A stretch of DNA of 64,000 bases from an uncultured Nitrososphaeraceae archaeon (GCA_963779615.1 CAVZZA010000004.1:224001-288000), one strand, 5' to 3'; counted from the first letter of the stretch, positions 27,943-64,000 are shown. Numbers and translations are program-made. The notes: generated by a model from the letters alone, not told the origin.

Positions 27943-28031
27943 GGGTCCGTAGCTCAGCATGGATAGAGCGCCTGCCTTCTATCTTTAAGGGAGACAGCCG
28001 GAAGTCGAGGGATCGAAGCCCTCCGGGCCCG
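27943..28031 (+). tRNA. tRNA-Arg(TCT) with 14-nt intron (27982-27995) at canonical position 37/38
   Basis: Acceptor GGGTCCG/CGGGCCC, anticodon TCT at 27978-27980, bulge-helix-bulge (CTTC/GGAG helix flanked by 3-nt bulges), T-stem GAGGG/CCCTC; TTTATAA box about 30 nt upstream. Confidence 0.92.
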
Positions 28032-28100
28032 TTAACCATATGGGTTCAAATAATTTTTCATTTCCAATAACCAGTGAAGGGAAAGGAAGGAGATCAAACA

Positions 28101-29409
28101 ATGCCTGCTAGGTTAACAACAACTATCACAAACATAGAGAAGAAGGTAAAGAATCAGGTCAACAGACAACTGATAGAGGAATTCTTTCAGTATCTGACCA
28201 CCACTATCGACACGTCAGAAAGCTACCAAAATGGGCTTCTCAAGGTTTTGATAAGGTATGCAGAACACCTCGGTCCAGAGGTCACCTTTTATCAGATTCA
28301 GGAAAAGCAGCCGGTGCTAGGGTTCCTGGACTCAAAAAGGAAGACAGAGAGGGAAGACCCAGACAGGAAATGGATTACAACATGGAATGACTACTTGTGG
28401 AGGATAAAGTACTTTTTCAGGTGGTTATACAATGCCAAGGAAAAGGGTCTCAATACAGAGTCGTACGACAGTTGGGTCACACCATCTTTTATAAATATAA
28501 AGATGAAGTTAACAAAGAGGCTAAGCCCATATCTTGAGACGGAGATCTGGGATAGGGGCGACCTCTTCACAATAATAAGGTATGAGCCACATAAAAGAAA
28601 CAAGGCTGTGCTAGCCCTGCTTTGGGACTTGGATGCAAGGCCTCATGAGGTGACTTTGCTTAAAATCAAACACATACAGCCTGAAGGAGAGGTATGGCGA
28701 AGGCGAGATACCCCATGAGGCAAAAACGGGAAGCGGGCCTTTGCTGCTCACTTTTTCGTTTCCCTATGTGAGGGATTGGCTTAATGAGCATCCCTTTAAA
28801 AACTCGCCTGATGCTGCCCTGATTTGCAGTCTTTTAACCGGAAGGCCGATTAGACCAGACCAAATCAACGAGATCATGAAACAGCTCAAAAATAGGATAA
28901 TCCGTTTGCTTGGAGCATCAGAGATAGCTGAACAAGACGAAATTGACAAACTACAATACTTGCTAAAGACAAAGAAATGGAACCCCTATTGCATAAGGCA
29001 TTCGGCAATAACAGCCGATTCAGATCATCTACCAGATTATGCCCTAAAGAAGAAGGCGAGGTGGTCCATGAACTCAAAACAAGGCGCCCGCTACATCAAG
29101 AAAAGGATGGGCAACGAGCTCAAGGCCAAGATTCTTGAGTACAACGGAATCTCCATCGAGCCATTAAAAAGGCAAAAGCCGAGTGTTCTGGATTGTCCCC
29201 GGTGTGCGCTCGTTAACGCGGTGGATAACAAGTATTGTTCCAAGTGCAGCTATCCATTGACGCCTGAAGCCTATGACCAAATAAAACAAGGCGAAGAAGA
29301 ACGGTTTAAAGATTTAGAAAAAAAGTTAGTAAAAGACATGGAGAACAAGTTCCAGCAAATTCTATTGAAGGTTAATGTGGAGAAGCTGAAGGAAAGGGGA
29401 GTAGATTGA
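28101..29409 (+). pseudogene. tyrosine integrase (family A) with C-terminal zinc ribbon, split by one frameshift near 28677
   Basis: DARPHE (catalytic R), KTGSG, NPYCIRHSAIT, ARY and CPRC/CSKC; the two ORFs join in frame if one base is removed, so the break may be a sequencing error. Confidence 0.85.
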
Positions 29410-29723
29410 TGATGTAGTCTTAGAAATAGCACCTGTAATCCGGTCCTATTAGATAACACAGGGCATTGGCTTCTTTGGTATCTATTACAATAGATTTATA
29501 TGACGGTGTATGTATCTTATATATAAACCTTTTTATTTACGTTAGTTGCAACTATAACATCAGATGAGTTTAAATTTAAACTGTATCAGCACTTTGGCAT
29601 GTTTTTATAAAAAGAAAAAAGGCATCCATCCACAGTAACTGGGCAATATTATATCGGGACCTGTTGGCAAAAGATTCGTACCCTCAAGCTAACAGATCAC
29701 CAAGTCCAAAGGTTCAGAAAACC

Positions 29724-29921
29724 ATGAACCCAAACTACATTACCACTAACCGCTATAAAACCTGTACTGGTTTGGACTGTAACAATGTTGCTCCACACTA
29801 CCTTAAGATAATTTATACAAACTGCTCAGGCTGGTTTTGTGACGCCTGCAAAAAGGACTTGGAAGAAAATGGTTTGGTGGAATCCGGCTCCGGTTCCCCA
29901 CAGAATGGATCTGACTTTTAG
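29724..29921 (+). CDS. small zinc-finger protein
   Basis: CTGLDC...GWFCDAC. Confidence 0.55.
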   Translation: MNPNYITTNRYKTCTGLDCNNVAPHYLKIIYTNCSGWFCDACKKDLEENGLVESGSGSPQNGSDF

Positions 29922-30057
29922 TGGCCATCTCTGTTGTTACCGCCTTTAACGGCACTATTGAATACACTGTCTTTATTTTTTACTACAAGAGATACAAGAC
30001 ACTGGTCTTCAACTATCATTTCAACCTAATCAAAACTTTGGCGATAGGGAAGGGGCT

Positions 30058-31138
30058 TTGAATTCTAATAATTCTTCTGACGCTGATGCATATAAAACAA
30101 AAAAGAATGTACCTTTACCCCTTTTAAAAAGTGCACCAAATGGTGAATTGGTCCATAGTAACAAGCATAGGAGGTATGTAAAAAGATATCAGGTCAAAGA
30201 ATTAGCTGAAAAGAATTATGTAGAAAATGGCATGGGCATAACTTTCAAGGACATGATGACCAAATTTGGGGTCAGCAAATCAAAGGCCCAAAGGAAACTA
30301 AAGCATTTTTTGGGTGAAGGGCTTCTTTTTACGGCTGACAAACTCACAAAAGGAAGGGATTCATCTCAAAGGCATCAAACGTGAAAAATCCACAAAGATA
30401 TTACCTAACTGAGCTGAAAGACAAAGATAATTGAAAGCAGAAAAAACAATGTCCAAAAAGACACCACGGTGGATATGGTCTCAGAAATAGGCATTCAAAA
30501 GGCACACAACTTCCGCGAGTTGCTAACGCAACTCGCTCTCTATCTGCTATATATCCACAAACTGCAGCTTATGGACTTCCATACCCAGGGAAAACTATGA
30601 ACTCATAGGCTGGGCGTTATAAGGGAACCGCCAAGGCCATCACAGAGAGGATAGGCATTCATACTGTGGAGTTTCACATTCACCCTAACGGCAGTGTGAT
30701 GGTTTACGTTAGCTGCAGCAACAGGCCTTTTAGGCTCCATGATGAGCAGGATGTTTTGGATATCCTTTTCTTTCTCGGTAGGGTGGAAGATAGACTTAGG
30801 ATTACTGTTGTCGGATGTAAGGGACAATGTTATTCCGCCTGTAAGAAGGTGGATTCTAAAGGCTTGTGACGTCAGCAAGGATGTTGAGATATGACAGCGT
30901 TGCACAAATAACATTGCCGGACATACAAATTCCGTTGTTTGAAAAGGCCCTAAGGGGCTATGTAAAACCCATAGGGGACAAAGTCTTTTACCGAGTTGAG
31001 TATGCCCTTACACCCAATAAGCCAGTAGAAGAGGCTTTAAAGAAACTAAGAAAAGATGTTATAGATAGACAAAGACTCCTTATCGTTGTAGCCCTAGTTC
31101 CTAATCCTTTGTTTTTCCTTGAATACGGTGTATGGTGA
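30058..31138 (+). pseudogene. element backbone protein with N-terminal HTH (possible replication/regulatory protein), fragmented by several frameshifts
   Basis: Collinear ORFs 30058-30384, 30666-30869 and 30866-31138; ITFKDMMTKFGVSKSKAQRKLK is HTH-like. Confidence 0.5.
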
Positions 31139-31402
31139 TGGATGTTGTGGCCGCCATTACCTCCTGTACAATGGGCCGCCACCTGCAGACATCAATAAAA
31201 TGGTTCTTGGTATTAGAAACAATGCCATTGGAGTAATCCTACTGTAGCAAATCTAAAAGTCCACTTTTTAAGTCGTTGTTTGCGGACATACCTCTGTTAT
31301 GCAGTATAGTGTAGTCTTCTCTTCCGCCTTCGTCGATCTCCTTTCCCAGTGTTACAAAACCCTCTGTTCCAGTGCCCTCATGTTGCTCAGTCTTGTCTAT
31401 TC

Positions 31403-32866
31403 TTAAGTTTGACCAGATACAACGTCATCTCGTTTCTGTTCAGAGCCAAATTTGTGGAAATCGCCAGCAGCGGCTAGACGTTTAAAGCCATCAAATGCCG
31501 CATACTTGTAGGCCATTGTGTATGTCGGAGTTGCAAACGTCAGGTTGTTAAACATGTCGATTGTCCCTGAATTGTGAATCGTGGCCTGCCCGAGGGCGAT
31601 GATCTCTGACGCGATGTCGCCGAGGATATGAACTCCGAGCAAGCACCGGTTGTGACGATGAAACACCAGTTTCAGAATGCCGTCGGTGTCTCCCGAGATG
31701 GCGCCGCGGGGGATTGCTCCAAAACTGCAACGCCCGACTTCGTAATCGATCCCTTGCTCCTTCGCATCATCTTCAGTCAATCCGACTCCAGCCACCTCCG
31801 GCACTGAATAAACTGCCGACACGGGTAACGGGTCTAACTTCTCCTTGAAGCCTAGGCCCAATGCATGACATGCAGCTACCCGACCTTGCTCCGTCGAGAC
31901 CGATGCTAGCGAAGGACCTATTACATCGCCAGCAGCGTAGACTCCACCGACACTAGTCTGGAAATGATTGGATACTTCAACTACTCCTCGATCTTTCAGT
32001 TTTACTCCGGCCGCCTCAAGACCGAGGCCTTCCGTGTTAACCGTTCGACCAGTCGCAAACAGCACGATATCCGGACTCAACACCTCGCCAGTTTCCAAAG
32101 TGACTTGTAGTTCGCCATCAACCCGGCCGGCGGTGCGCACTCCTGTGCCGAGCACTACCCTCATCCGCTGTTTTTCGAATACCCCGCACAACAAACGCGA
32201 CATCTCGCTATCCATTGTGCTCAGCAGACGGTATCCAGACTGAACCACGGTCACTGGGATCCCAAAGGCAGTAAAAATTGAAGCAAACTCACAACCGATC
32301 GAGCCGCCTCCAACGACCAAGACGCTCTTGGGAATGCGTTTAAGATTTGGCAGCTCTTCCGAGTCAAAAATGTCAGGATCGTCAAACTGGATGTTCGCTG
32401 GATGAAATGGGCGCGACCCCGTTGCTATCAGAACACTCTCTGCTGTGAAAACGCTTTCGGTTTCTGAGCCTTCATTGGGGGTGACCATTACCTTACGGTT
32501 TGGTCCCAAACGCGCCGAGCCAAAGATAACATCTACCCCTAACCTGTCCACAAAGACAGAGCGGGTAAAGGTCTGCAATGCAGAGCAAACCTCCCTTGTC
32601 CGTGCACGCATGAGATCCACTGCCATGCCTATGTCTGGTTGCGCAGTCAGTCCATAAAGGGCCCGGTGGCGAAAACCCGTAAGATGCAGGGCCGCCTCGC
32701 GGAGGGTCTTGGTTGGCCCACCGCCAGTCGTGACAACAAGGCCACCTAAGACTTTGCGCTCTATGACTAATGTTCGTTTTCCGGCGAATGCGGCAAACTC
32801 CGCCGCGCCCTGCCCCGCCGGGCCGCCGCCAATCACAATGAGGTCATAGTGACGGGTGTCCCTCAC
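31403..32866 (-). CDS. sthA: soluble pyridine nucleotide transhydrogenase-like flavoprotein (SthA/dihydrolipoamide dehydrogenase family)
   Basis: YDLIVIGGGPAGQGAA, GGPTKTLREAA (no redox-active CxxxxC), GGGSIGCEFASIF, YAAGDVIG and YKYAAFDG; GTG start at 32866 overlaps the upstream TGA. Confidence 0.8.
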   Translation of the reverse strand: MRDTRHYDLIVIGGGPAGQGAAEFAAFAGKRTLVIERKVLGGLVVTTGGGPTKTLREAALHLTGFRHRALYGLTAQPDIGMAVDLMRARTREVCSALQTFTRSVFVDRLGVDVIFGSARLGPNRKVMVTPNEGSETESVFTAESVLIATGSRPFHPANIQFDDPDIFDSEELPNLKRIPKSVLVVGGGSIGCEFASIFTAFGIPVTVVQSGYRLLSTMDSEMSRLLCGVFEKQRMRVVLGTGVRTAGRVDGELQVTLETGEVLSPDIVLFATGRTVNTEGLGLEAAGVKLKDRGVVEVSNHFQTSVGGVYAAGDVIGPSLASVSTEQGRVAACHALGLGFKEKLDPLPVSAVYSVPEVAGVGLTEDDAKEQGIDYEVGRCSFGAIPRGAISGDTDGILKLVFHRHNRCLLGVHILGDIASEIIALGQATIHNSGTIDMFNNLTFATPTYTMAYKYAAFDGFKRLAAAGDFHKFGSEQKRDDVVSGQT

Positions 32867-33049
32867 GGCTTGGGTTGTTCCGCCAACTGCTTCTTGCACC
32901 ATTTCGCATAGGCGATGATGGCTAATATGCATTTCATGGCGAATGCGGCAAACTCATCCGGGCCGCCGCCGCCAATCACAATGAGGTCATAGTGACGGGT
33001 GTCCCTCACGGCTTGGGTTGTTCCGCCAACTGCTTCTTGCACCATTTCG
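32820..33049. repeat. tandem duplication (about 90 bp) of the transporter-stop/sthA-start junction
   Basis: GCCGCCGCCAATCACAATGAGG...CTTCTTGCACCATTTCG occurs at about 32822-32907 and about 32964-33049. Confidence 0.85.
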
Positions 33050-33866
33050 AATAGAGAATGGTCGCGACAATAGATACAATTAGGTAAATCACAATCACAT
33101 CAATGGTTACTGCAGCTGGGAAATTTATTGCCGCTATGAGCGTAGCTATCCCCATTTGACGTTGGGAAGAGGCCATTGCCAGAACTGCACGATCCCCAAA
33201 TGCCGGCCCGCCCAATAAATGTCCAGCTGCCAATGACACCGCAGCCAACACAAAGATCACTATGTAGGACAATACACCGGCTTCCATAATACCATTCAAA
33301 TTCAGCACCAGCAAAGCGAGCAAGGCTGCCATGGTCACCTTACCTACAACGGCGTTTATCGATTTACTAAAACGTTCGGCCCATCGCGGTGCAAAGCGCC
33401 GAATAATTGCACCTAGTATCAACGGGATGAGAATGGTCTTTGCAATGATCTTAACTACTTCAATTGGTGGGACGCTAGCATCATGAGCCAGAGGAAGAGC
33501 CGTCAGAATGGTCAAGGAAACAGGAACGGTAACCACGCTTATCAGCGACATGCCAATTAACAGGGAATACGCATATGCTGGGTTTGCCCCCCTAGCCTCC
33601 ATTTTGAAGGGCAAAGTTATCGCAATGGGCGAGATCGACAAGAGTATCACCGCAGTTTTCACGCCAACAGGTAGCGGCACTAAAATTAGTATCACTGCAG
33701 TCACTACTGGGACCACAACGTACATAGCAAGAAACGTACGAGCGAACAGGCCAGGACGACGAAAAAGGAAAGACAGCTCAAACCGTGTAGCTCCAAAACC
33801 CAGGTTTAGAGCAGATGTGAATAATGTTGCCTGCAGCAAGATGAGAATTAATTGCTCTACGGTCAT
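33006..33866 (-). CDS. bile acid:sodium symporter (BASS/SBF) family transporter
   Basis: About 9 TM helices; RRPGLFARTFLAMYVVVP and GHLLGGP..DRAVLAMASSQR. Confidence 0.8.
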   Translation of the reverse strand: MTVEQLILILLQATLFTSALNLGFGATRFELSFLFRRPGLFARTFLAMYVVVPVVTAVILILVPLPVGVKTAVILLSISPIAITLPFKMEARGANPAYAYSLLIGMSLISVVTVPVSLTILTALPLAHDASVPPIEVVKIIAKTILIPLILGAIIRRFAPRWAERFSKSINAVVGKVTMAALLALLVLNLNGIMEAGVLSYIVIFVLAAVSLAAGHLLGGPAFGDRAVLAMASSQRQMGIATLIAAINFPAAVTIDVIVIYLIVSIVATILYSKWCKKQLAEQPKP

Positions 33867-33912
33867 CTACTTCACTACATATTGGCCAAGTTGAGCCAGA
33901 GCTGCTCTTCAG

Positions 33913-35247
33913 TTAGGTGTCTAAATCTGCCAGCCAACGTAAGGCACGTATGCCTGGCATGAAACAATATTCACCGCCGCGTGTGACGACGAACCGAGGC
34001 AGACTCTGGAAGCTCTTTCGGACTGGCTTGCTTGGGACGATGAACTTGCCCGAGCCATCGTTGGCTCCTGAAATGGGGTCTTTGTCGTTGCCTGACCCAA
34101 TAAACACGCCGTTGTTCACCCACTCTGCCTGGACAAACTCGAACTGCCGGCGAAGGTGCGCGCCTATGAAGACGAAAATTAATCCCCGATCTGCCCCATC
34201 ATCCTCCAACACCCCCTCCGGCAGAGGGGGGCCGTAACGGGTGCCGCGCCGAATCATCCTGTGGAGACTAACTTTGGTGGTGTCTCCGAGCGTGTCTCGT
34301 GGATTCATCCGCCGAATGTGTGATCCGGATGGTGTGCTGAATCCTCTCGGATCCTTGTCTTGAAAAAGAAAATTGTTGTTGCGTTTAGGGTCGGCTCCAA
34401 GTTCGGGGTCATCACGTTCTGGGCAGAGGGCTAAGGGGGCTCCACTTCTCCAGCGTCCCATCATCTTGGCGGCCTTCAGTTCCTCTTCCTCAGGGTTTGA
34501 GGAAATTGTCTTCAGGTATTTCCTGAAATCGGCCACGCGCTGGTGGAGTTTTCGGAACACAACGTAGGTTCCGTTTCGGCCGAGTGCGTCTGGTTTCGGC
34601 ATATCAGGAAATCCTGCCAGTCTCATCGGGGTAGCCTAATACGAATTCTCCAGCCTTGAGAGGGGGGTCCCTGGGGTTGGTGCCTGGAATTCCACTCCCC
34701 TCTATTGCAGGATGACTGATGCCGTCTCTAAAGCCAAAGGGCTCCTTTTCGGTTGGCAGCGCGTAGCAATCCTGACGCCAGATGGGTTTGATACCCTGCA
34801 ATCCATGGTATGCTTTCCTGGCACGCTCCATTACTGACTCAAGTTTCTGCTCGTTTGGAGATAGGGCAGTCAGGACAACATGAACGTCTTTTGTCCCGAG
34901 TGGTTTCTCCCAATTCTCCGGAGAGCTTTCTCCAGTGTCCCCTAGTTCATTTGCCCGTGAAGCCATCCCCTGACTGAAATTCAGGTGGGAAACTGTCCAG
35001 TGATTCTGGAGGAACACCCAGGGCCTTAAGGCCTTGGAATCTCAAGGAAACGCTTACCCAAGCATCGCCTGCTGGGCTTGTCTGATGCCCGACGGACGCC
35101 ACAACCCTACTCAGCCTCTCCATCAGATCTCGTCCCGCCTTACGGTCATCTATGCGTAATAGGATGTATGTTGCCACATAAGGTGTTGGGTCGGGGAGAA
35201 AGAACCCCGCTCTGTATGTCGTCCAATTCGAGCGTGGCCTTTGACAT
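33913..35247 (-). pseudogene. DyP-type (dye-decolorizing) peroxidase, split by several frameshifts
   Basis: LELDDIQSGVL start, EPFGFRDGISHP (GxxDG), NGTYVVFRKLHQ, GSHIRRMNPRD, IRRG and FEFVQAEW. Confidence 0.88.
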
Positions 35248-35505
35248 CTCAGTCAACTCTTCCCACTAGTCCCTGACTTTTTAGAGATATTGGCTAAGAC
35301 TTAGCTGAATAGATTCTTCCATAATCGTCGTAGTCTTGAGTCACCGCCAAACGTGTAGGCCCAAATGGTGGCGTCTGCTATCAAAATGTCCGGCTTCATC
35401 CGAGTAACTCCAATAAACATACATGCTGATGCGGCGATGATCGCAATCTCGTTTGCGTGGTGCTGTAGTCATCTCAGTCATGGTCTTGCACTCCTTTGAC
35501 CTGTT

Positions 35506-36002
35506 TTATTGCATTTGATCCAGCATGTTGCTGAATGCATTGCGAACTTTCAATGCCTTTTTGATCTCCTCGACCGTAACACCAGGATAACCCTCGAATT
35601 GGATAGAAGCTCTCTACACCGCGTTGTCCGCCAGAAACTTCCTGTATGCCTCCGGGTCGGCTGCACTGGCAGCGTGGTCGTCAGGAAATCCCTCTAGATC
35701 CGGGAAGAACCCTGCAACCCCGGATTCAGCAAAGATCCTGGCAGCGTCATCAATGTACCTGTCCATGATCCGTGTCGAACGAAGCGTAGTAGATAAATCG
35801 TGTGTCATTGTCGAAGAGAATCCACCGTGCGTAGTGTAGCGTAAGCGGCCTTAACAGTCTTGTCTGTACCTCTTCCCACGGCAAATTCAGCTCGCTTAGA
35901 GGCGTTATCGCGAATTTTCTGACCTCTGCCAGGCTTTACCTTTGCAACAAAGGTGAAGTGTTGATTGTAGATAAGGTAATTGTTTCTTGCATATTGTAAC
36001 AT
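35506..36002 (-). pseudogene. conserved hypothetical DyP-partner protein, frameshifted
   Basis: Joined frames read TLHYARWILFDNDTRF...FDTDMDRYIDDA...LEGFP...YPGVTVEEIKKALKVRNAFSNMLDQMQ; lies upstream of and co-oriented with dyp. Confidence 0.6.
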
Positions 36003-36526
36003 AATGAAAGTATATATTATTAAACTTTTAAGATAATGCAAAAAACCATCAATTAGTTAAATAAGTTAACTTGCTCCAGAAAGAACCATTTTCAACAGAG
36101 AATACTGTTTTAGATATCATCATAGATACTTGCAGTTTAGTAACAATAAGGAGGTTGAGATTTGATTTTAGGCATAGATGGACCTTGCGATCTTTGCCTA
36201 ATCCAAATCTTTGTGGACGTCAGGTTCTGAAATGTTACTCCACAAAAAGAGTTACACTGTATGAGTGTATCGTTTATACTTGAGCCTGTACGTGTCACTT
36301 CTAAGAGTGAGAAAGCCCTTGAGTAAGAGCGGAATTATTAGCTTTGTCCAGGGATTAACTAAACTGATGTATGTATTTTCTGCAAAATGAGAAACAATCA
36401 GCAATAATAAATAATAGATCTGTCTGTATTGACAAATGAATAAACATGATCATGAACAAGCAGTGAGAGGAATATCTGGAGTATTATGCCTTCGAGCAGT
36501 TACTCGGCGATAGTAGGAGTAGGCCC

Positions 36527-37685
36527 ATGTCAGACCATTTCTCCGGACCCCGAGCGATCGCAGGTCCGGCCGGCGATATCACTGATCTTTATGCATTCCC
36601 CAGCCCAGAGCGTCCGGGTCACCTCGTGCTCGTGCTAGACGTGATGCCAGACGCCCGCCTAGACTCGCACTTCTCAGAAGCGATTGTCTATCGTTTGCGG
36701 CTTCGGCGAGTCACCATCGGGGGAACCGGGGCAGCCACAGCCTTCCCCTTCGCTGGCGAGGACCAAGAGGTGGTCTTCAGCTGCCACTTTGAGCCTCCGC
36801 GGCAAGGCGAAGTAGGGATGGCCCAGACGCAGGAAGGCTGGTGCGTGGCGCCGTCCGGCGAGACGATACGCTTCCGCGTTCACGACGAGAAAGGTGCAAG
36901 TAGCGATGGCCTGCGCATCTATGCCGGCCTCAGAGCTGACCCATTCTTTATGGACCCGCAGGCGATCTTAGAGTCGCAAAAGACTGGGCGGCTTGCCCTT
37001 AAGAAGGTCGGAAACAATGCCTTGATCGGGCTCAACGTTCTGAGCATCGTCATAGAGGCTGACTGCCAACCGTGGCTGCGCGACGGTCGTGGGCCACTGT
37101 TAGCGGTGGTCAGCGAGACTGTAGTCGCCGGCAAGCTCCCTGTCCGCATCGATCGGGTCGGCCGCCCAGAGATCAAGAACATGATCTTGGGGTTGAAGGA
37201 GTTTGACCAAGTCAACCGCGACTTGGAGGTGCGCGACCTCTACAATCTCGAAGACGCCTTCCACATGAGCAAGGTCTACGGTGGCGTTTATCGCGCTCGG
37301 ATGCATGCCAACCTGGCCAGTTACGATCGCTGGGATGGTAAGACCGACTGGCCTCTTGACCCTGATGGCGCCCACCCCCTGACTGAGTCTGCTTCTCTCC
37401 GACTACCTGGTCGTCGACGTCACAAAGCCGTATGCCGACGATAGCTTCTTCGAAATCGAGCAGGCTACCCTCAATAGGCGGACCCACCAAACGTGTGGTG
37501 GACGCTCACTCAACGACGACTTTGTAGACAAACTGCTCACGCTGCTTGTTAACGCCGGCAAAGGGGCACCTGTGAGTGACGGCGTGGACCGGCCGGCGAC
37601 GCCAGTCTCCAATGTCTTCCCGTACCAGGCGCCGCCAAATTCTATACCGCCGGCTAACCCCGCGCGGCCGGTCATTGAGACGTAG
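36527..37685 (+). pseudogene. DUF4331-like protein, one frameshift near 37388
   Basis: MSDHFSGP...DITDLYAF, YAGLRADPFF and DRVGRPEI; in the shifted frame GGRSLNDDFVD...FPY. Confidence 0.75.
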
Positions 37686-37696
37686 GGGGAGAGTGC

Positions 37697-38017
37697 TTCC
37701 TGGTCCATCTTTGCCGGAAGGAGTATTGGAGGATGACGGAACGGAGCGAGGACTGATGTTTGTCTTTATAGGTACAAGTATTAGTCGGCAGTTCGAGTTT
37801 GTCCAGGCAGAGTGGGTGAACAACGGTATATTTATTGGATCAGGTGGTGACAAAGACCCTACTGCAGGAGCCAACGATGACACAGGAAAGTTTATCGTCC
37901 CACGCAAACCAATCCGAAAAAGCTTCCAGAACCGGCCTCGGTTCGTCGTCAGGCGGTGAATATTGTTTCATGCCAGGCATACGTGCCTTACGTTGGCTGG
38001 CAGATTTAGACACCTGA
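37697..38017 (+). repeat. inverted second copy of the DyP peroxidase 3' end
   Basis: Encodes LPEGVLEDDG...FEFVQAEWVNNG...GGEYCFMPGIRALRWLADLDT; reverse complement of about 33913-34230, with the last about 60 bp identical. Confidence 0.9.
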
Positions 38018-38149
38018 CGGAAAGCCAGACGGCTCCAAATTTGACCGGACCAGTTCAACTTATTTACTTCTGCCAACCTTGCGATAAAACTAATTGACGA
38101 GATTTTCAGATTATCTCCTTTGATAATCCAAGGTAGAGTCATGATACTC

Positions 38150-41064: not shown

Positions 41065-41072
41065 GCGTCAGG

Positions 41073-54623: not shown

Positions 54624-55391
54624 CTAAATCTGCGCCATGCCCCCATCTACGAACAGCTCAATACAGGTGATGAAACGGCTGTCGTCTGACGCGAGGAATG
54701 TGGCGGCTTTGGCTATTTCGTCGAGGCTTCCATCCGCCCCATAGGCATGGCGGACAAAAGGCCCTCCCTGAATTGCTCCTTCTGCTCGTCAGTCTCCAGC
54801 AGCAGACCATCGAAGCCTGGCGTGTCTATCGGGCCGGGACTGATGGCGTTGACGCGGATCCTGCGCTGCTTCAGATCAACCGTCCAGGTGCGAGCGAAAG
54901 AGCGCACGGCCGCCTTGGTTGCGTTGTAGACACCAAACCCTCCAACCCCCTTGGATGCGGCCACCGAGGCATTCAAAATGATGGAACCGCCGCCACCGTC
55001 GCCCCCACCCTGAAACAGCGGAAGCGCCTTTTGCACGGTGAACAAAAGCCCTTTGGCGTTGATGCCGAATGCTTTGTCAAAGTGGGCTTCCGGAGGTTTC
55101 CCCCAGTGTTGCCAATTCCCCAATGCCGGCGTTGGCGAACAGGATGTCCATGTGGCCCCTCTTCTCCCTCACAGTGGCACACAGCCTGTCAAGGTCCGCA
55201 AGGTTTGAGACGTCCCCCTGGACACCGGTGATGCCTTTGCCTATTCGCCTGACTGCCGCATCAATCTCGCCCTGGCGGCGGCCTGTGATGAAGACATGGG
55301 CGCCCTCATCCACAAACCGCTGGGCCGCGGCAAGGCCTATGCCGCTGGTTCCGCCTGTGATGATTACGACTTTCCCTTCCAGCCTTTTCAT
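54624..55391 (-). pseudogene. short-chain dehydrogenase/reductase (bacterial-like), frameshifted
   Basis: [33 protein letters not shown] and DGGMAQI across shifted frames; visibly GC-rich. Confidence 0.85.
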
Positions 55392-56032
55392 GGTATCCTA
55401 ATCGTGACGGCAGGCTTTAAGTTTGCAAAAATGAGTGAAGATGCTTTTGCTGCTGCACACACTGAGGACACCTACGAGCAGGAGGCAGACCTAATCCATT
55501 GCGAAACGATACAAGGGTCTATCACATCCATAACGCGAATGCCCCTTCGGTGGGATGGTACACAGTGTCAGATGAGGCGACCGGTCAGGTCCAAGAAGAG
55601 CATGAGCAATTACATGCCAGTCACCTGCATACCCCTGATACGGGACAAATTGCAGTGGCACAGCCTATAGGCCACAAGGCAATAGCCCACCCGACCAACT
55701 GCATAAACAGGACATGGGAAAAGGTACTTGAAAAGATTGTAAAAACTCCCCTTTAGTATGACAGTATGAGGTCGTGCATAGTGAATTTGTCCATTAATGT
55801 ATGCCTTGTAGACAAAAACGAATAGAATATGGATATTGACAAAAAAAATGCGAGAGACAAAATATTATCAATGTCATACTTTAATATTAAAAAAGTATGC
55901 ATATATTATTTATAGAAACATATACACAGAATAATACTTTTGAGGTTTTGATTGTCTTAAAGCTTGCTAAGGGATATTTCATCCATCTTTGAAATGACAT
56001 TATCAATGAATATGAAAAAATTGTTGATTCCA

Positions 56033-56716
56033 TTAACGTAAGTTTACTATTATCCAGTATATACCATAAAGTCCAAATATCATGCTCAAAATCAAAATCA
56101 ACATTTTATAATATTTTGATTTTAATATCGATATTCCTTTAAAGACAAGGTAAGAAATCAGAGTTAGCCAAGCATAGTCCATCCATATATGAAAGGAGAA
56201 AAGAGATGCTGTTCCCGATAAAATACCAAAAGAAGAAACTGAATCAGATATAAGCTTTAGACCAACTGTTAGCCACCAAGCCAAAAAGAAAGGGTTTAAG
56301 GCACTAAATATGATGCCTGATATGACTGGTCGATTTCTGTTATTGTAACTAACTTTCTGAATCTCTTTTTTATTGTTGTTGTTTAATTTTATGGCCACAT
56401 CCTTTCCTTTAATAATGTCTTTAACCTGTAGGATGGAAAACGCAACTATGGCAATACCACCAACTATTCCAATAATCTTTAGATTTCCAACACTTGTAAA
56501 GCCAGTATAGGGAATTTGAGACATACCTACAGCCAACAATATGACTAAAGGCAGTTCAACAATAGTGTGCCCAAATGCAATTTTAATCCCTGAACGAAAT
56601 CCTTCTTTACTGCCGTATATAAGATTTGCAAAGAATAATGGACCTGGTGATAGTACACCAGATAAGGATACAAGAATTACTTCTCCTGCAAATTCAAGCA
56701 TATTCATGCTTGGCAC
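56033..56716 (-). CDS. LysE family translocator
   Basis: GVLSPGPLF...G.KIAFGH and SALNPFFLAWW; about 6 TM helices. Confidence 0.85.
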   Translation of the reverse strand: MPSMNMLEFAGEVILVSLSGVLSPGPLFFANLIYGSKEGFRSGIKIAFGHTIVELPLVILLAVGMSQIPYTGFTSVGNLKIIGIVGGIAIVAFSILQVKDIIKGKDVAIKLNNNNKKEIQKVSYNNRNRPVISGIIFSALNPFFLAWWLTVGLKLISDSVSSFGILSGTASLFSFHIWMDYAWLTLISYLVFKGISILKSKYYKMLILILSMIFGLYGIYWIIVNLR

Positions 56717-57599
56717 TTATAGAATATGCGATTCCTTGGTCCTTTTATATGTATATATCTATAACTATCTAATCCTGGAAAACGTAACCATAATATGCGA
56801 TTATATTATTGCCAAAGAAACTGAAATCAAGATAAATAACTCTACGAAAGAAGGCACAATAAAAATAATTACATTGCCGTCAATCTATTGCCACAACAGA
56901 AACACTTTTAAACAAATGACAAAGCAAAATACCCTTGATTACCTCAACAATTAAGAAAACATATAAGTAAAGACCATACCCAGAGATGAATTCCATTTTC
57001 CTGTAAAGCAGCCCTCCATAACTATTTCCCCAAATGGTTTGTGCCGTTAGGGCCCCTTTTCCTGCAGGTTTTCCTTTGATCCACTTTTCACAATCGCAAT
57101 CATGGTCATAACGTCAAACCTGTTCGGAATACCAAAGTCGGCCCTTGCCATTTCATAGTCAAATCTCTGCATACATTAGGCCGCCAATCCCCCTGATGAT
57201 GCCTCCAAGGCCAGTTCTTCCCAAGTTGCCAAGTGTCATACTGGTGCGTTTTGAAGTTGGATTAACAACAACTAGTTTTCATCTTTTGTGTAATTTTATA
57301 CGGGCATCAAATAACAGTTTTTGAAATCAAAAGGTATTTTTGAATAAGAACTATTTCATGGGTGTGGGAAAGAAAAAGCTGTCAAAGATGAAGAAAAGGG
57401 ACTGCCGAAAAAGCATGACATGGATTTTCAGCACTTTAATGATATACACGATTAACTTTCTTTGCCTAAAGCACAAAAACGAGTTTGTTGTGATAAAGAA
57501 CCGGTAAGACTACAGCAACAGGGACCCATTAAAACTGTTGGAAATTTTGAGTGAAAACAACATCGACCCTGGAAATGGTGATAGAATTTATGATACAGG

Positions 57600-58186
57600 T
57601 AACCCAAATCTTCTTGCAGAAGAAGTATTAAGCGGATATTCAACAACATGCCCTTTTGATGTCGCCCAGGTTGTCCAGCAGATAGTCCCTCTCCTCTTTT
57701 ATTGATTGGATCTTCTCCTTCCGTTTGCTCTTTCGCTGTTCGTGCCTCTACGTTGATTATGCTGTCCGTTGCGTTTCTGATATCCTTGGCTCTGGTGATG
57801 TTTATTTTTATCTCTTCAAACTTTACAAACGTGGCCAAATGGTGCTTATTCTACTTTAGGATTGTGGCTGCTTTATGCATCTTCTGCAGCCTCAAAAAAT
57901 CATACAGTGTGCTCATTACCCTGTCAGTTTCCAAATCCAAATCAATGGCTACCTGAACCGGGATCCTGCCTACCAAAAACAGTTCAAACGCCTGGCATGG
58001 TATGGACTTTGCTTTTTTTCCTTTTTCTGAGCATTCATCCTTCTTACCCTCCCTGGTCACCTTTCCCCTTATCATCTTGATGTCGGAGAAGGATACATGC
58101 GCCTGCTTGGCGATTTGTGGAAACCTAACGCCTTGGTTCAGCAAGTCTATGACCAAGTTGTCTTTTTGTTGCCTGTTTAGAATCAT
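57600..58186 (-). pseudogene. HTH + coiled-coil island gene copy interrupted by a stop at 57851
   Basis: KDNLVIDLLNQGVRFPQIAKQAHVS and QAFELFLVGRIPVQVAIDLDL; continues in ORF 57452-57838. Confidence 0.7.
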
Positions 58187-58402
58187 CGTTACATGTGATA
58201 TTGATATGCCAGTTAGTTTTTAAAGATGCAAGAAATCGCCCATTATTACCATTGTTACAAAAACCAAAGCATTGTTACATGACTTGTTTTGTATGTTGTT
58301 TTTGATGAAGAGTAACACTTATTTTTAAATATATACACAAAGCAATTATTTGTTGAATTTTTTCTTTTTTTTAAAAGGTCTTTAATAAAAAAAATCTAAA
58401 TA

Positions 58403-59428
58403 ATGGAGGCTTATATAGATTTTATGATATACTTAAAGGTAGTTTTTTGTGCTTTATGTCTATTTTTTATTTTATATACTCCATTGATAACTTTTGGACA
58501 ACAGGATAACTCAACAATTGCAAACAACCCTACAACTAACACCAGCAACTCATTCGATCTGAGTGGATTGTATATCTCTGACAACCAAGATAAATATTTT
58601 CTAAGACAAGTTGGAAATTCCTTATGGTGGATTGGAACAGATAAGGATGGTTCACATGTCATAAATATTTTCAAAGGGATTAAGGATGGAAATATTATAA
58701 CAGGACAATGGATTGATTCACCACTGGGAAAAAAAATGGGTTACGGCTCATTGAACTTAATTTTGTTAGCCAATTCAACTGAAAATGTAACATTGGTAAA
58801 AGTCCCTTCTAAAGATAAATTTCCGATAAACCAACTGATAAAATTTAATCCTGAAACTCAAGTTATTCCAAAATTTATGGTTATGTTAAATGGTGTAAAT
58901 GTGGACATCCCAAGATCACCAATCCGTGACGTATTGTATGTTGGTTTAGGCGTGAAGGAAGATAGTAATACTCCATTAACCGCAACTAGGTATCTAGCAA
59001 ACAGCGATGGAAGTTCTAACATTACTTTAGACTTAAAGCTAGGACCATTTGAGCTTGACAAAAAAGATGATGGTCTTGCCATTGTGTTTATGGGGGTGAA
59101 TAAGGAAGACTCGAGAACTACTCCAATACTAATTAGTTTAGGAGAAACACTAGTCCAACTATTTGACCCCTCATTTGATTTCTACAGCCTATCTAACATG
59201 TATCAAACAAATCTGCTAATGCGTTCATTATCTCCTGGATTACTGTCTGGCGGATGCAACGGACTTGTTTTTGCAGACAAAATATTTTTACCATTTGAGG
59301 ATTTGAAAAAATCTATATCTAACGGCATTTATTCTCAAGAAAAATCCTATCTTGGGACAGAATCGCCCCCAGGATGTGGCCCGAATTCGAAATATCAAGT
59401 AAAATGGTCAGTTGTTCCAGTAGAATAA
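58403..59428 (+). CDS. secreted/surface protein of unknown function
   Basis: Signal peptide, N/T-rich linker, YFLRQVGNSLWWIG beta-rich domain and a C-terminal Cys pair. Confidence 0.7.
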   Translation: MEAYIDFMIYLKVVFCALCLFFILYTPLITFGQQDNSTIANNPTTNTSNSFDLSGLYISDNQDKYFLRQVGNSLWWIGTDKDGSHVINIFKGIKDGNIITGQWIDSPLGKKMGYGSLNLILLANSTENVTLVKVPSKDKFPINQLIKFNPETQVIPKFMVMLNGVNVDIPRSPIRDVLYVGLGVKEDSNTPLTATRYLANSDGSSNITLDLKLGPFELDKKDDGLAIVFMGVNKEDSRTTPILISLGETLVQLFDPSFDFYSLSNMYQTNLLMRSLSPGLLSGGCNGLVFADKIFLPFEDLKKSISNGIYSQEKSYLGTESPPGCGPNSKYQVKWSVVPVE

Positions 59429-60069
59429 TGATGACTATCCGAATTATTTTCCTTTTGTGTTACTGGTTTTCTAATCCAATCCACAAATAAAGATAGTTTT
59501 GGGGCTACTCAAATAATATTTTTATAAAACAATCATCTCTAAAGACATTTGAGTAGATAGATTCGTCCTAAAAATAAATTATTATAAAGGCGTCTTGGGC
59601 GAAGTTGGCTTAGTCTGGTTGAGGAACAATAAGGGATCGCAGATTCAAAACCGAACTTCTCTTTAAACAACAATAAAAGATGGTTTTTTGACTCTAGGCG
59701 CATTTATCGCAATAGGCTAAAGTTTTAAACTTGTTGCTATATATTCAATAGGTACGTTCTACCAAAATACTTCAATTTAAAAACACCACTTCTAAAATCA
59801 AAGAATCCATTTATAGGACCGATATCAGCACCAAGCCCTCCAAGCCAGTATGTATTCTAGTAACATTATTGGACAGCAGATACAAATGTCTCAAAGTTAC
59901 AATATTGATCTGATGCTACTTCTGTTGTTTTTTTAGGATAGGATTGTTATTTATATGTTTTATCTATACCATACAGGATAAGTAAAATTTCGAAAAAAAA
60001 GAGGTATACTCTCTTGCTCTTCTTCCTTACCAGTCACAAAAGACGATGTGTTAATATCCATATCGTATG

Positions 60070-60385
60070 TCTGTTAATTATCTCCCTTAGCTGTTGATTA
60101 TGTAACATATCGGTATCTTATCGCACTATCCATTGTGCCATTGCATCCTTCCGAAAAATTAGTTGGGAGGGGTGCTATCACATATACAGCGTTACCATTG
60201 CTGTTTGTCATATGCAAGTTCCCACGGTATATGTTAAAAGCAATGCCTATGGGAAATGATCCCATATATATGGTGCTGTGACAGCGATTGTTCAATGGTC
60301 GATTACAGATACGGGGTTGCTAACTTGTTTGCTACATAGGTAAATCCATTATTTGAATTAGAATCAATCTCTTGGTCCGGCTCCC
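60070..60385 (-). pseudogene. highly degraded YVTN-propeller gene 3' remnant
   Basis: GSFPIGIAFN...HMTNSNGNAVYVIAPL...SEGCNGTMD resembles the C-terminus of 48950-51115. Confidence 0.65.
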
Positions 60386-60703
60386 ACTGATGATGCATGA
60401 TTACAGGGGCTAAAGTTTCATTTTTGACGAAGGATTGGTTTACGGACTGGCGTACTACTTTAGAATAGGATATAGTTATCCATCAGGATTTTCATGTGGC
60501 TTATGTCAAACACATTAGGTTTTTCTTTGGGTCAAGAGCGCAAGCAGGAGCCACTTATTAATGAATCCTAATTTAAATCCGGAATGTGGATCATCATAAA
60601 TTATGGACTCTTTTTGCGCAGTGTTTGATTGCTACCCAATAAAGAACTATTAACTAAGATAAATACAAAATAGAATATTATCTTTTGGTATTATTTATTG
60701 AAA

Positions 60704-61180
60704 TTAATAGTCAACAACAGTTGTCATATTTAGCAAATCAGACATTATCGCGTGTGTACCTATAATGGCCCCATCAATTATATCTGAATTGTTGTATCCG
60801 GCTATCTTCAAACAAACTTCACAAATTATTACATTTCCCCCATTATCCATAAAATTTGTTACATTGTTTGTTAATGGATTTAGGCCTAAGTATTGGTGTG
60901 GATGCTTAACACCTAGTTGCACACCTTCAATGCTTAACATTAATGTGACATTATACCCGCTATTTAGCATGGTTTGAGAGTCCAATAGGGCTATAGTAGC
61001 TCTCCAAGGTTCATCACTGCTAAGGTGATACACTAACTTTGTCTCACTACCACTTGCGGTTTTAAGGGATTCTGAATACGCCTGGTGCAATTTAGGATTA
61101 TTTGCAAACATAATCGAAAAGCAAAAAGCAAAAATAATTAACATATAAATTACCTTTATTTTGGTTTTCATTTTATTCAT
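60704..61180 (-). CDS. secreted DsrE/DsrF-like family protein
   Basis: Signal peptide; LVYHLSSD, VTLMLSIEGV and VIICEVCLK. Confidence 0.75.
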   Translation of the reverse strand: MNKMKTKIKVIYMLIIFAFCFSIMFANNPKLHQAYSESLKTASGSETKLVYHLSSDEPWRATIALLDSQTMLNSGYNVTLMLSIEGVQLGVKHPHQYLGLNPLTNNVTNFMDNGGNVIICEVCLKIAGYNNSDIIDGAIIGTHAIMSDLLNMTTVVDY

Positions 61181-62023
61181 ATCCCAATTTTGGATTATTT
61201 AAGAATTTATTTGGAATTTGTCATTTAATAAAAATCAAGGGTGAAGGCTTTTAAATTAAGGAAAGCGGGAGATATCCCAAAGATACTTTCTGTTTTCTTT
61301 ATTTGCTCACGAAACGGGAAACAACATCTACACAATATGATTAGACCCGTCAAATCTTGAATTATGGATTAAGGTAATCCCCTTTGTTTTTAATAATAAT
61401 GCACATAGCATGATAGGCAGAAATTTGAGAATAAGATAACATTGTATCTAGAGTAAATCTATCATTCCATCCATCTTTGTATATAATATAGGGATTCAAA
61501 AGTTAAAATAACAAATATTATGTAATAATTACAAAAAAAATATATTTTTGTGTATATCTTTTCTGTATAGATACCAGTGGAGATAGCTTTCAGAATACCA
61601 AGGATTTAAGTAATGGTATAGATGGTTAAGCACTGAACCAAAGGATTCTAAATAAAAGATAGAAAAAGATATCTAACCTGTTAAGCAGGTCACATGGCCT
61701 TTTAAAGATGTCATAAAAGCACCTTTATCGGCCTTTAATTCTACAGGCACGCACATGAGTCATTTTTTAACGGTGAAAATGAGTCGGAAGCATGGGCCCG
61801 ATAATCCTGTATGTTTTTTTAGTTCCATTCATAAATTATACTATAAAACATGCAGCAGCAGCCTACCTCTCAAACCCCGCAACAACTTGAACACAAGATT
61901 GGCCCTCAAAATCCACATTTTCTGTTTAGATTCCACCAGACCCCCAGAAACCAAAAAAAAGATACTCACAAATTCAGGCATTTCTTGTTCATGCCTGTAC
62001 ATAAAAACGTATAGAAAAGTAGA

Positions 62024-63043
62024 ATGAATGACATGAGTGAGAAATACTTTCAACTGGCTCCTGATTTGGCAATATGCAGAATAGTCAACGGCATGTGGCA
62101 AGTTGCAGGTGGACATGGACAGATTGATCGCGAGTTGGCAGTAGAAGACATGATGCGATATCATGATGCTGGCTTTACCAGTTGGGACCTAGCCGATATT
62201 TATGGCCCGGCAGAGGATTTTGTCGGGCAGTTCAGGCGTAAGCTATTGGCGCTAAAAGGAAAAGAAGAACTCGACAGAATTCAGGCATTAACAAAATGGG
62301 TGCCACAGCCAGGAAGGATTACCCCTTCCTTCGTTAATGAAAATATAGAAAGATCACGTCGCAGGATGGGTGTTAGCTCGCTGGATTTACTTCAATTCCA
62401 CTGGTGGGATTACACCAACTCGCAATACATGGATGCCCTCAAATACCTATCCGACTTGCAGGATAAAGGGATAATCAAGCACTTGGGCCTTACAAATTTT
62501 GATACCGACCGAATGCAGATCATGATAGATTCAGGAATAAAAATTGTATCAAACCAGGTTCAATATTCAATCATAGATCGCAGACCAGAGGTAAAGTTGG
62601 CACCATTTTGCCTGAAACACAACATAAGCCTCCTTGCGTATGGAAGCATCTGTGGAGGGCTTTTGTCAGAGCGCTATCTGGGAAGAATGCAGGAACCACC
62701 TTCTGCTGAGTTAAGCACACTAAGCTTGCGAAAGTACAAGCGAATGGTAGATGCATGGGGCGGATGGAATTTGTTCCAAGGTCTTTTATCGGCTTTGGAT
62801 GTAATTGCACAAAAGTACAATGTGAGCATTGCAAATGTGGCAACCAGGTATATTCTTGACAAGCCTGCAGTAGCAGGTGTTATCATAGGTGCCAGACTTG
62901 GAATAGTTGATCACATAAGCAATAACGCGCAGGTGTTCAACCTTAGTTTGGACAAGTCAGATTGCGAAGTCATAGATTCTGCATGCACAAGGTCGAACAA
63001 CCTGTTTGAGATAATTGGGGATTGTGGTGATGAGTACAGATGA
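62024..63043 (+). CDS. aldo/keto reductase
   Basis: DLADIYG, LTKW, LDLLQFHWWD, LGLTNF and NQVQYS. Confidence 0.92.
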   Translation: MNDMSEKYFQLAPDLAICRIVNGMWQVAGGHGQIDRELAVEDMMRYHDAGFTSWDLADIYGPAEDFVGQFRRKLLALKGKEELDRIQALTKWVPQPGRITPSFVNENIERSRRRMGVSSLDLLQFHWWDYTNSQYMDALKYLSDLQDKGIIKHLGLTNFDTDRMQIMIDSGIKIVSNQVQYSIIDRRPEVKLAPFCLKHNISLLAYGSICGGLLSERYLGRMQEPPSAELSTLSLRKYKRMVDAWGGWNLFQGLLSALDVIAQKYNVSIANVATRYILDKPAVAGVIIGARLGIVDHISNNAQVFNLSLDKSDCEVIDSACTRSNNLFEIIGDCGDEYR

Positions 63044-63149
63044 TCTTTTCCCCACTGTACCTTTATTTTAAAAAAAATACTATCCAATACCCAAATCAGA
63101 AAAAAAGGATTTGGCAAAGAAGCTGTCCGTTCCCTCCTACATGCCAGAG

Positions 63150-63375
63150 TCGAAGCCCCACTTGCCCGCTAATTATATGGTTTCAAATAATTTTTAATTT
63201 CCAATGACCATAGAAAGGAAGGGGGAGGGTACAGATTATTGTCTAAAGTCACAACAATCATCACAAACATAGAGAAGAAGGTAAAGAATCAGCCAAGCAC
63301 ATACAACTGATATAACAATTCTTTCATTATCCGACCTACACCATCGACACGTCAGAAAAATATCGAAATGTTCCT
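63150..63375 (+). pseudogene. degenerate att plus 5' remnant of family-A integrase (start of a further element E5)
   Basis: TCGAAGCCCCACTTGCCCGCTA then TATATGGTTTCAAATAATTTTT...CACAAACATAGAGAAGAAGGTAAAGAATCAG...ATCGACACGTCAGAAA, matching 28013-28220. Confidence 0.8.
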
Positions 63376-63565
63376 ATAGTTAAGCACTAAATGGCATCTG
63401 GAATGAACTTCGCCTCAATCAGGACGAATGCATCCAAAACACCCAGACCTTGGTTAACAACGATCATAAACTATTCAGGCAGGCAAGCAGGCAGGCAGGC
63501 TGCCAAGGGTATAGACCACATATTAAGGATGGAAATTTATTATCTGCACTTATATCTCCTAAAAC

Positions 63566-64000
63566 ATGACCATAGCATTATTTCCAACAAACAAGCCATT
63601 ATTAATATTGGTTTCAATAGTGTTGGCAGGAGCCTTTTTATTCGGATATCCATTGCATCAAACCGTTGTAGCTATAGCACAATCACCGCAGTTACCATCA
63701 TCACTTCCACCACACACACAATCATCAGAACAACATACCCTACCTTCCAACACCTTATTTCACAACACTACTCTCACCAACATTACCAGCACCACATACA
63801 ACACTATCAACGGCACCACCATATTCAATTTACAAAGCCATCTCCTTAACTTGGTATTCAACAAAGTCCAAAATTCCATAGTTCAGATAACCTCTAAAAT
63901 ACCCTCATCGCCTCCCCCCTCATCATCCGCCCCCGACATTCCACAGCCAAACCCGCCTTCAAATACTAATCCTAATGAAGACAAAAATGCAACCGCTTTG
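63566..64000 (+). CDS. N-terminus of a probable secreted HtrA/trypsin-like (S1C) serine protease, runs off the window
   Basis: Manually translated open frame MTIALFPTNKPLLILVSIVLAGAFLFG...LVFNKVQNSIVQITS...NATAL, typical of the region preceding the GSGF motif; catalytic residues are not in the window. Confidence 0.6.
   Translation, partial: MTIALFPTNKPLLILVSIVLAGAFLFGYPLHQTVVAIAQSPQLPSSLPPHTQSSEQHTLPSNTLFHNTTLTNITSTTYNTINGTTIFNLQSHLLNLVFNKVQNSIVQITSKIPSSPPPSSSAPDIPQPNPPSNTNPNEDKNATAL

Follow-up and report, generated by a model that had tools for sequence, protein, structure and literature searches.

The locus and its target tRNA

A tandem array of integrated elements lies directly behind a tRNA-Arg(TCT) gene in a 64,000-nt stretch of DNA (the window, C4:224001-288000) from an uncultured Nitrososphaeraceae archaeon, the host genome (G000) of which comprises 3.17 Mb in five contigs with 36% GC. 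An archaeal rRNA operon is located at 19255-24336 of the window, and the tRNA gene, the sole tRNA-Arg(TCT) of the genome, is the target of integration. No tRNA was called by ARAGORN in default mode at 27943-28031 because the gene carries an intron. Past the tRNA the GC content rises to 42-52% across 28-56 kb; the neighbouring DNA outside the rRNA operon has mostly 31-37%, and the value for the host is 33-37%. The 3' end of the tRNA plus TTA (28013-28034) is repeated on the same strand at 43749, 53466, 59831 and 63150, and these direct repeats bound units that differ in content, with the tRNA itself kept intact. The locus is best understood, with a probability of about 0.8, as an integration hotspot at which elements of two integrase families (A and B) were inserted successively at tRNA-Arg, became stacked and then decayed. 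The features are collected in Table 1.

Synteny with three relatives (G012, G004 and G007) resumes at C4:333.5-346 kb (333500-346398) and at the start of C5 (12700-36500), thus the variable region past the tRNA may measure about 81 kb, of which the window displays 36 kb. The same synteny suggests that the end of contig C4 is joined to the start of C5.

Table 1. Features of the array, positions counted from the first letter of the window (P, arm left of the core O; P', leader right of the core; O*, degenerate core)
Feature	Position	Strand	Remarks
tRNA-Arg(TCT)	27943-28031	+	intact, 14-nt intron; Rfam tRNA 42.5 bits; ARAGORN, introns allowed
att copy 1 (attL)	28013-28034	+	native tRNA 3' end, continuing to 28034; junction at 28031, tRNA-O-P'A
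Unit E1	28035-43736		about 15.7 kb, GC 42-52%
Integrase A1	28101-29409	+	family-A tyrosine recombinase pseudogene, full length, one frameshift near 28690
Pyr_redox (pyridine-nucleotide disulphide) oxidoreductase	31403-32932	-	E1
SBF transporter	33006-33866	-	E1
DyP fragment	34604-35017	-	E1
DUF4331 protein	36527-37444	+	E1
NHL-repeat gene	38933-40812		E1, broken
NHL-repeat gene	41073-42644	-	E1, intact
Weakly HTH-like protein	42842-43447	-	E1, E 0.007-0.008
P1 arm (TACATGCCAGAG) + att copy 2	43737-43770 (core 43749-43770)	+	22/22 identical to native; junction at 43749, P1-O-P'B
Unit E2	43771-53436		about 9.7 kb
Integrase B	43823-44647	+	pseudogene, residues 1-275 of a 421-aa family, 2 stops
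231-aa ORF	44970-45665	+	E2
Weak HTH_23 match	45962-46531	-	E2, E 0.007
NHL fragment	47361-47957	-	E2
721-aa beta-propeller protein	48950-51115	-	E2
224-aa protein	52479-53153	-	E2, sub-threshold SpaA_2 match
P2 arm (GAATCCATTTTAAAGGACCGATATCAGCA) + att copy 3	53437-53486 (core 53466-53486)	+	21/21 identical; junction at 53466, P2-O-P'A
Unit E3	53487-59802		about 6.3 kb
Family-A leader + head of integrase A2	53487-53715	+	residues 3-55 only, 4 stops; unrelated GC-rich DNA next
GC-rich DNA	53700-54700		E3, about 1 kb, no convincing ORF
Frameshifted SDR (short-chain dehydrogenase)	54713-55397	-	E3, name from translation alone, no family scan
LysE	56033-56716	-	E3
341-aa ORF	58403-59428	+	E3
P2 arm + degenerate att copy 4	59803-59850 (core 59831-59850)	+	15/20; junction at 59831, P2-O*-(unknown leader)
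Stretch "E4"	59851-63137		3.3 kb, GC about 35%, host-like
DsrE-like gene	60704-61180	-	"E4"
Aldo/keto reductase	62024-63043	+	"E4"
P1 arm + degenerate att copy 5	63138-63171 (core 63150-63171)	+	17/22; junction at 63150, P1-O*-P'A
Unit E5	starts at 63172		continues beyond the window end
Family-A leader + degenerate head of integrase A3	63172-63370	+	more degenerate than A2

Junctions between the units

The five copies of the tRNA 3' end reported in the initial annotation lie in one orientation within 35 kb, and their presence was confirmed by alignment and by shuffle controls without a single chance match. The 22-mer, with up to three mismatches allowed, gave 3 matches against 0 in 100 shuffles, the P2 arm with its core (26-mer) gave 2 against 0, and the P1 arm with its core (21-mer) gave 2 exact matches against 0. 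Both recurrent element-end flanks of that annotation were also found at the copies named: P1 (TACATGCCAGAG) at 43737 and 63138, and P2 (GAATCCATTT..AGGACCGATATCAGCA) in front of the 53466 and 59831 copies. Four of the five att copies are followed by an integrase-family leader of type A or B, the 59831 copy being the exception. Between copies 1 and 3 identity extends into the integrase leader (28014-28265 versus 53466-53715), so that the A leader with the first 45-60 codons is 87% identical from the core onward; for copies 1 and 5 the value is 77%. No extra hidden att or arm copies were found within the units.

Segmental duplication followed by homologous recombination among dispersed paralogues, with no site-specific integration at all, would draw on the fact that NHL, beta-propeller and SpaA-like genes occur, flanks included, in multiple copies throughout the genome. 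This explanation is hardly credible, since every junction reads exactly arm, tRNA 3' end and integrase leader, the blocks of identity begin at one and the same base of the tRNA, and the units between the junctions are mutually unrelated save for common gene families.

Integrase families A and B

Sequence comparison bore out the proposed family-A integrases (28101, 53487 and 63172) and the one of family B (43823). The accompanying claim that an integrase follows the att sites stands for four junctions; nevertheless, what follows there is a pseudogene or stump, the tRNA-proximal A1 itself is frameshifted, and neither integrase-like sequence nor a known leader was found after the 59831 copy. Every integrase of the array is a pseudogene or stump. 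A1 is the least damaged: its N-terminal half matches residues 4-209 and its C-terminal half residues 200-438 of an intact relative, each half being free of stops in a frame different from the other. Ten intact relatives share LLKIKHIRLKERYGEGEIP across the point of the frameshift, and A1 retains the full catalytic set of R, K, R, W and Y. By comparison with the intact 421-aa paralogue taken as reference, integrase B has lost the C-terminal catalytic part.

There are three PF00589 matches in the whole genome, all outside the array, and neither half of A1 alone matched Pfam at E<=0.01. An intact 511-aa A-like paralogue beside tRNA-Val, 30% identical to the C-terminal half of A1 (E 9e-28), reaches 27.6 bits with PF00589 (cut-off 27.1), and the intact 421-aa B-like paralogue reaches 26.3 bits against the same cut-off over model positions 4-168 of 172. 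Weak PF00589 matches are seen in 6 of the 12 members of the family-A alignment, which shows almost no variation at R, K, R, W and Y. Family A has a weak match in PHROGs, and B matches phrog_1 "integrase" at 1.3e-08. The AlphaFold model of one family-A integrase is mediocre (pLDDT 66, pTM 0.39); Foldseek returned no row with it at E<=0.001, and its best six rows, at weak E values of 0.011-0.28, were Cre, lambda Int (twice), archaeal Xer and Tn1549 Int (twice). A sequence search of the PDB with the A1 C-terminal half and with a family-A profile found nothing. Judged by their sequences, families A and B are tyrosine recombinases. There is no BLASTP similarity between A-like and B-like paralogues (best E 3.6), and A and B are two unrelated families specific to Nitrososphaeraceae.

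Proposed course of integration

The repeats, arms, integrase remnants, outward gradient and variable occupancy in relatives are directly observed; the site-specific recombination, the sequence of events and any mobility today are inferred. In elements of families A and B the attP would consist of P arm, core and P' leader, with a core that repeats the final 18-22 nt of tRNA-Arg. Recombination of attP with the tRNA 3' end would insert the element and regenerate the tRNA, the integrase gene would then begin about 50-70 nt downstream of the core (70 nt for A1, 52 nt for B), and the displaced tRNA end would stay at the far side of the element. Repeated insertion, mostly at the live copy of the tRNA, would stack at least three units (E1, 28.03-43.75 kb; E2, 43.77-53.47 kb; E3, 53.49-59.83 kb), with two further and older scars at 59831 and 63150, and the units would decay after insertion. 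The idea of a tandem stack formed at one tRNA by two families of tyrosine recombinases that regenerate the tRNA 3' end is supported by the data.

Family A and the same tRNA in related genomes

Public records of Nitrososphaeraceae contain 123 relatives of family A. Those closest to it, among the named ones, are from metagenome-assembled genomes of Candidatus Nitrosocosmicus, in keeping with the genus suggested in the initial annotation; the counts of loci given below cover the 80 relatives that were kept. An open frame of at least 430 aa is present in 48 of these loci. In 38, a same-strand tRNA ends less than 1.6 kb upstream of the match to the C-terminal half of the integrase, and in most of them about 150 nt or less separate the tRNA end from the integrase ORF. 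The tRNAs concerned comprise Arg-TCT/TCG/GCG/CCT, Ala, Lys, Pro, Met, Ile and Val, together with five without a clear anticodon. No att repeats (18-mer, up to three mismatches) were found downstream of the family-A integrases of the 38 loci over distances of up to about 10 kb. Elements elsewhere measure about 4.8 kb (locus L102) and about 8.8 kb (genome G011).

All 18 genomes of the genus that were compared retain the tRNA and the flank gene, the latter at 68-76% identity in the 17 with a good match to it. What follows the tRNA varies, and comparison of the locus across relatives, as advised in the initial annotation, disclosed variable occupancy as well as a second array. Among 14 relatives the site is occupied by A-type sequence in two, by B-type in six and by neither in six (G008, G006, G017, G012, G004 and G007). 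Both A-type cases have P'A; the integrase of G010 is stop-free over the 384 codons present on its contig, and that of G011 is broken. In the B-type group, P'B with stop-laden B integrases is found in G018, G009 and G001, the P'B leader alone in G016 and G005, and a distant B-like gene in G015. The integrase regions only, and not the cargo, are common to the relatives at this locus: at a threshold of E<=1e-20 the 32.1-38.9 kb part of E1 is unmatched in all 33 other genomes of the genus, and the four genomes that match E1 do so only at 29.96-32.03 kb.

G011 (contig C4, loci L025 and L026) possesses its own array of four junctions at the orthologous tRNA, with different cargo, from 0 to +22 kb: tRNA-O-P'A at the tRNA, P2-O*-P'A at +8.8 kb, P2-O*-P'B at +13.5 kb and P3-O*-P'A at +22 kb. 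Its cores decay outward as well.

A separate observation concerns G016 (contig C69, locus L031), where the homologue of window positions 1377-18091, DNA upstream of the rRNA operon, lies about 2.7 kb downstream of tRNA-Arg(TCT). This arrangement is a rearrangement hinged at the tRNA-Arg(TCT) locus.

Order of the stack

The statement that integrase and att integrity fall with distance from the tRNA was confirmed. Outward from the tRNA the identity of the cores is 22/22, 21/21, 15/20 and 17/22, and the integrases pass from a single frameshift through a truncated gene with two stops and a 55-codon stump to none and finally a degenerate stump. Such a loss of integrity fits older units further out. 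B-type sequence stands directly at the tRNA in five of the seven closest relatives, and a B remnant lies distal to an A-type unit in the host and in G011, which fits a later arrival of A at the tRNA-proximal position. The age of the outermost scar, which has a homologue in closer relatives, also speaks for an order by age. The proposal that older elements were pushed outward by successive insertion thus draws support from occupancy, the G011 array and the integrity gradient, and an order with the younger units near the tRNA is somewhat favoured.

Several points weigh against this reconstruction of successive insertion, beginning with the order itself. The three inner cores are all perfect, therefore decay gives no ordering of them. 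The compared relatives are distant species rather than strains, and none of them shows a true empty-site allele of the host species. Public sequencing runs each contain at most 0.14 of the sampled words, and the contigs of four metagenome runs reach only the tRNA and parts of 31.2-37.9 kb, leaving the junctions, the integrases and E2 uncovered; this gap in coverage does not count as evidence. The array has no intact integrase, and the DNA at 59.85-63.15 kb resembles that of the host. Arms and integrases are not paired one-to-one: P1 stands before both P'B and P'A, and P2 ends units with A and units with B on their left. A strict pairing of arm type with integrase family was therefore rejected, as each arm goes with both families, and deletions, swaps of modules or arms, or the use of distal att copies as targets must have played a part as well. 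Finally, the succession of a B-type unit, P2-core-P'A and a truncated A head is also found after tRNA-Arg(TCG) at C1:130154-135087, so blocks of this kind may move together.

That recurrence, with one copy in the array and one on C1, is one argument for a composite that was built elsewhere and inserted once, for example E2 with E3 or E1 with E2 as a block, in which case the order of units would reflect assembly in the donor and not chronology. P2-core-P'A junctions with intact integrases and no tRNA in front of them, as present at three loci in relatives (L062, L067 and L102), are in keeping with it. However, the two copies in the host genome are only 73-83% alike, and the B-type occupancy of the tRNA in most of the closest relatives fits insertion of B first and A1 later at the same site. 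A single composite insertion is thus unlikely, and successive insertion is retained as the preferred explanation.

The outer part of the array

The initial annotation listed five copies of the tRNA end. Of the units next to them, E1-E3 are upheld, but the stretch at 59.85-63.15 kb has the GC content of the host and carries genes found across the genus, which makes it doubtful as an element. Of the 33 other genomes of the genus, 26 contain a match to the reductase segment, at 67-85% identity and with a ranking that looks vertical, and 20 contain a match to the DsrE-like gene. The two genes are widely separated in G012 and G015, both of which are complete genomes. By its sequence, the stretch may be ordinary chromosome between old att scars, and a count of three elements plus two old scars is rated above five bona fide elements. 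A P1-core scar is also present downstream of the reductase in closer relatives (clearest at L043, recognisable at L042, L044 and L045, weakest at L041), therefore the outermost scar is old.

These data lead to the question of whether the array ends at 59850 after three units and gives way to chromosome, the 63150 scar being a separate and much older attR that was later used by an A-type element or moved by rearrangement. Host-like GC, the distribution and lack of linkage of the two genes, the scar shared with closer relatives and the missing known leader after the 59831 copy all speak for such an ending. On the other side, the sequence directly after 59850 is unmatched downstream of the tRNA in any relative, therefore it gives no proof of an old host flank; all five copies are co-oriented within 35 kb; and five distant relatives have neither a tRNA nor an A/B integrase in the 20 kb around the reductase. 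An end of the array at 59850 is consequently a tentative alternative to a stack that reaches 63150 and beyond.

Junctions and integrases elsewhere in the genome

The core 18-mer, with up to three mismatches, occurs 20 times genome-wide against 0 in the control, and a search for an arm followed by a tRNA-like core yielded 23 junctions against 0 in the reversed genome. The latter search recovers three of the four arm-bearing junctions of the array and misses the degenerate 63150 copy. At least nine of the 23 junctions are followed by integrase remnants. The possibility, raised as a counter-argument in the initial annotation, that att-like copies are scattered independently of integrases had a mixed outcome: the copies are indeed scattered genome-wide, yet remnants of integrases accompany at least those nine. 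Eleven P'A leaders are present in the genome; a tRNA stands in front of A1 only, and the rest are preceded by P1, P2, P3 or no clear arm. The family to which the array belongs forms a mobilome that is abundant in this genome and for the most part fossil.

Integrases related to A or B are found next to other tRNAs of the genome, namely Arg-TCG, Arg-GCG, Ala and Val, and B-like ones stand directly after tRNA-Arg(TCG), tRNA-Arg(GCG) and two tRNA-Ala genes. The intact 421-aa B-like integrase at tRNA-Arg(GCG), 38 kb upstream, occupies C4:212888-214153, is 73% identical to B and has a similar leader; it is a candidate to act in trans on the P'B junction. No intact close family-A integrase was found elsewhere in the genome, the nearest being 29-30% identical; among relatives, the ORF at L047:3476-4795 is an example of an intact one.

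A package consisting of a truncated A head, GC-rich DNA and a dehydrogenase remnant recurs at 73-86% identity at at least six other loci (C5:833483-831055, C1:186954-188268, C4:94051-95444, C1:135051-136057, C5:379325-378495 and C3:440029-441186). The GC-rich DNA of about 1 kb lacks a convincing ORF in every copy and always follows an A head cut at about 50 codons; the dehydrogenase remnant is often next. A cluster of five arm-plus-core junctions spaced by 1.2-2.9 kb lies on the minus strand at C5:512886-520560. Its intervals hold one or two small genes each (secreted SpaA-like proteins, kinase fragments), with no tRNA and no recognised integrase.

Mobility and comparison with known systems

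The array was initially described as an integron-like cassette archive whose units could be excised in cis or trans. Neither the analogy nor excision in cis is sustained. The units are multigene blocks of 3-16 kb with dead integrases of their own, there is no working head integrase, and cassette-type sites were not seen. Given the state of the genes, excision in cis is ruled out, barring a sequencing error as the source of the A1 frameshift. The integrases being dead, the stack is at present immobile, save for any action of a related integrase in trans. As in integrons, accessory genes are arranged in ordered units with recombination sites between them and an integrase gene adjacent. In integrons, however, one functional head integrase serves single-gene cassettes that lack promoters. 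The units of the array bring integrases of their own and have numerous genes on both strands, the sites seen are direct repeats of the tRNA end, joined to element arms, rather than attC hairpins, the head integrase is frameshifted and a common promoter is not evident.

Accretion-mobilisation by integrative and conjugative elements (ICE) and cis-mobilisable elements (CIME) in Streptococcus thermophilus reportedly involves integrase-less, att-flanked remnants beside an integrase-bearing element at one site; the present array differs in having no functional integrase. A working system of this or the integron kind would require that integrase-less, att-flanked units be excised, shuffled and re-inserted by an intact integrase encoded elsewhere, so that secreted-protein genes are reassorted. 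Perfect direct repeats of 18-22 bp at the first three cores, the intact B-like integrase at tRNA-Arg(GCG), the 23 junctions with the integrase-less C5 cluster among them and the dispersed A-head package could all be cited in its favour. It is nevertheless very unlikely, since the nearest intact family-A integrase is so distant, the copies are only 73-87% alike and therefore old, and the units are multigene, encoded on both strands and rich in pseudogenes. Equally slight is the chance that a genome-wide exchange system is still active, with the arm-core-leader units as its substrates and the few intact integrases beside tRNAs moving the integrase-less units in trans. If this were true, the exchanged units would include the truncated-head package with its GC-rich DNA and the small C5 units, the secreted NHL, beta-propeller and SpaA-like families would be reassorted, and the system would represent an archaeal, tRNA-anchored analogue of integrons and accretion-mobilisation.

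Stacking followed by decay has its nearest counterparts among archaeal elements. According to the relevant passages of the survey of Krupovic et al. 2019 (PMC6563490), tRNA genes, among them some with introns, account for 57% of thaumarchaeal integrations, and "cryptic integrated elements" form the main class (2.6-98 kb, mostly at tRNA genes, without signature genes, with auxiliary and stress genes). The array resembles the elements described there in the use of tyrosine recombinases and tRNA genes, and differs from them in being stacked five junctions deep with all integrases dead. Tandem integration of several tyrosine-recombinase elements re-using one site is stated in the same source, and the pertinent part of a review (PMC8371274) adds that archaeal elements, related or unrelated, can integrate in tandem at one locus and that neighbours exchange modules. 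Mechanism and outcome are alike, with no difference in kind from the tandem arrays in those passages; what the present case adds is depth, the sharing of one core by two families and, in another species, a parallel array. A new mechanism is not revealed, as tandem one-site integration has already been described for archaea. The SSV-type "suicidal" integrases (PMC7253208) are likewise archaeal tRNA-targeting tyrosine recombinases, but their att lies inside the integrase gene, which is split on integration, whereas in the array the core ends some 70 nt before the A1 start codon and the gene stays whole; intact family-A relatives have one ORF after the tRNA.

No published description of the tRNA-Arg(TCT) array was found in a literature search, which is no proof of absence. 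In the passages concerned, a report on skin Nitrosocosmicus (PMC13245735, 2026) deals with genomic islands flanked by integrases and gives no att analysis, and the main text of PMC6563490 does not mention "Nitrosocosmicus". The locus documents, for a genus missing from that main text, a route by which accessory DNA enters a soil ammonia oxidiser, through one tRNA hotspot with subsequent fossilisation; the entering DNA includes oxidoreductase, transporter and secreted-repeat-protein genes. The definition of two Nitrososphaeraceae integrase families with their att anatomy is useful for the annotation of islands, and families A and B are possibly usable as site-specific tools in archaea without genetics.

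Cargo of the units

Parts of the GC-rich E1 cargo with the SBF transporter and DUF4331 genes (32200-34100 and 35500-37800) are 97-98% identical to metagenome contigs from soil, rhizosphere and winery (four studies). Some of the loose ends flanking those contigs are very GC-rich, thus the donor of this cargo may be bacterial. A 319-bp inverted repeat of 83% identity (33908-34226 and 37709-38022) brackets the segment with the DyP fragment and the DUF4331 gene, which could be a nested transposon-like insertion. The secreted-protein paralogues at 38933-42769, 47361-48614, 48950-51115 and 52479-53153 share a conserved N-terminal region. They comprise NHL-repeat proteins (144-nt period), beta-propeller proteins (126-nt period) and SpaA-like proteins, and are multi-copy on all contigs.

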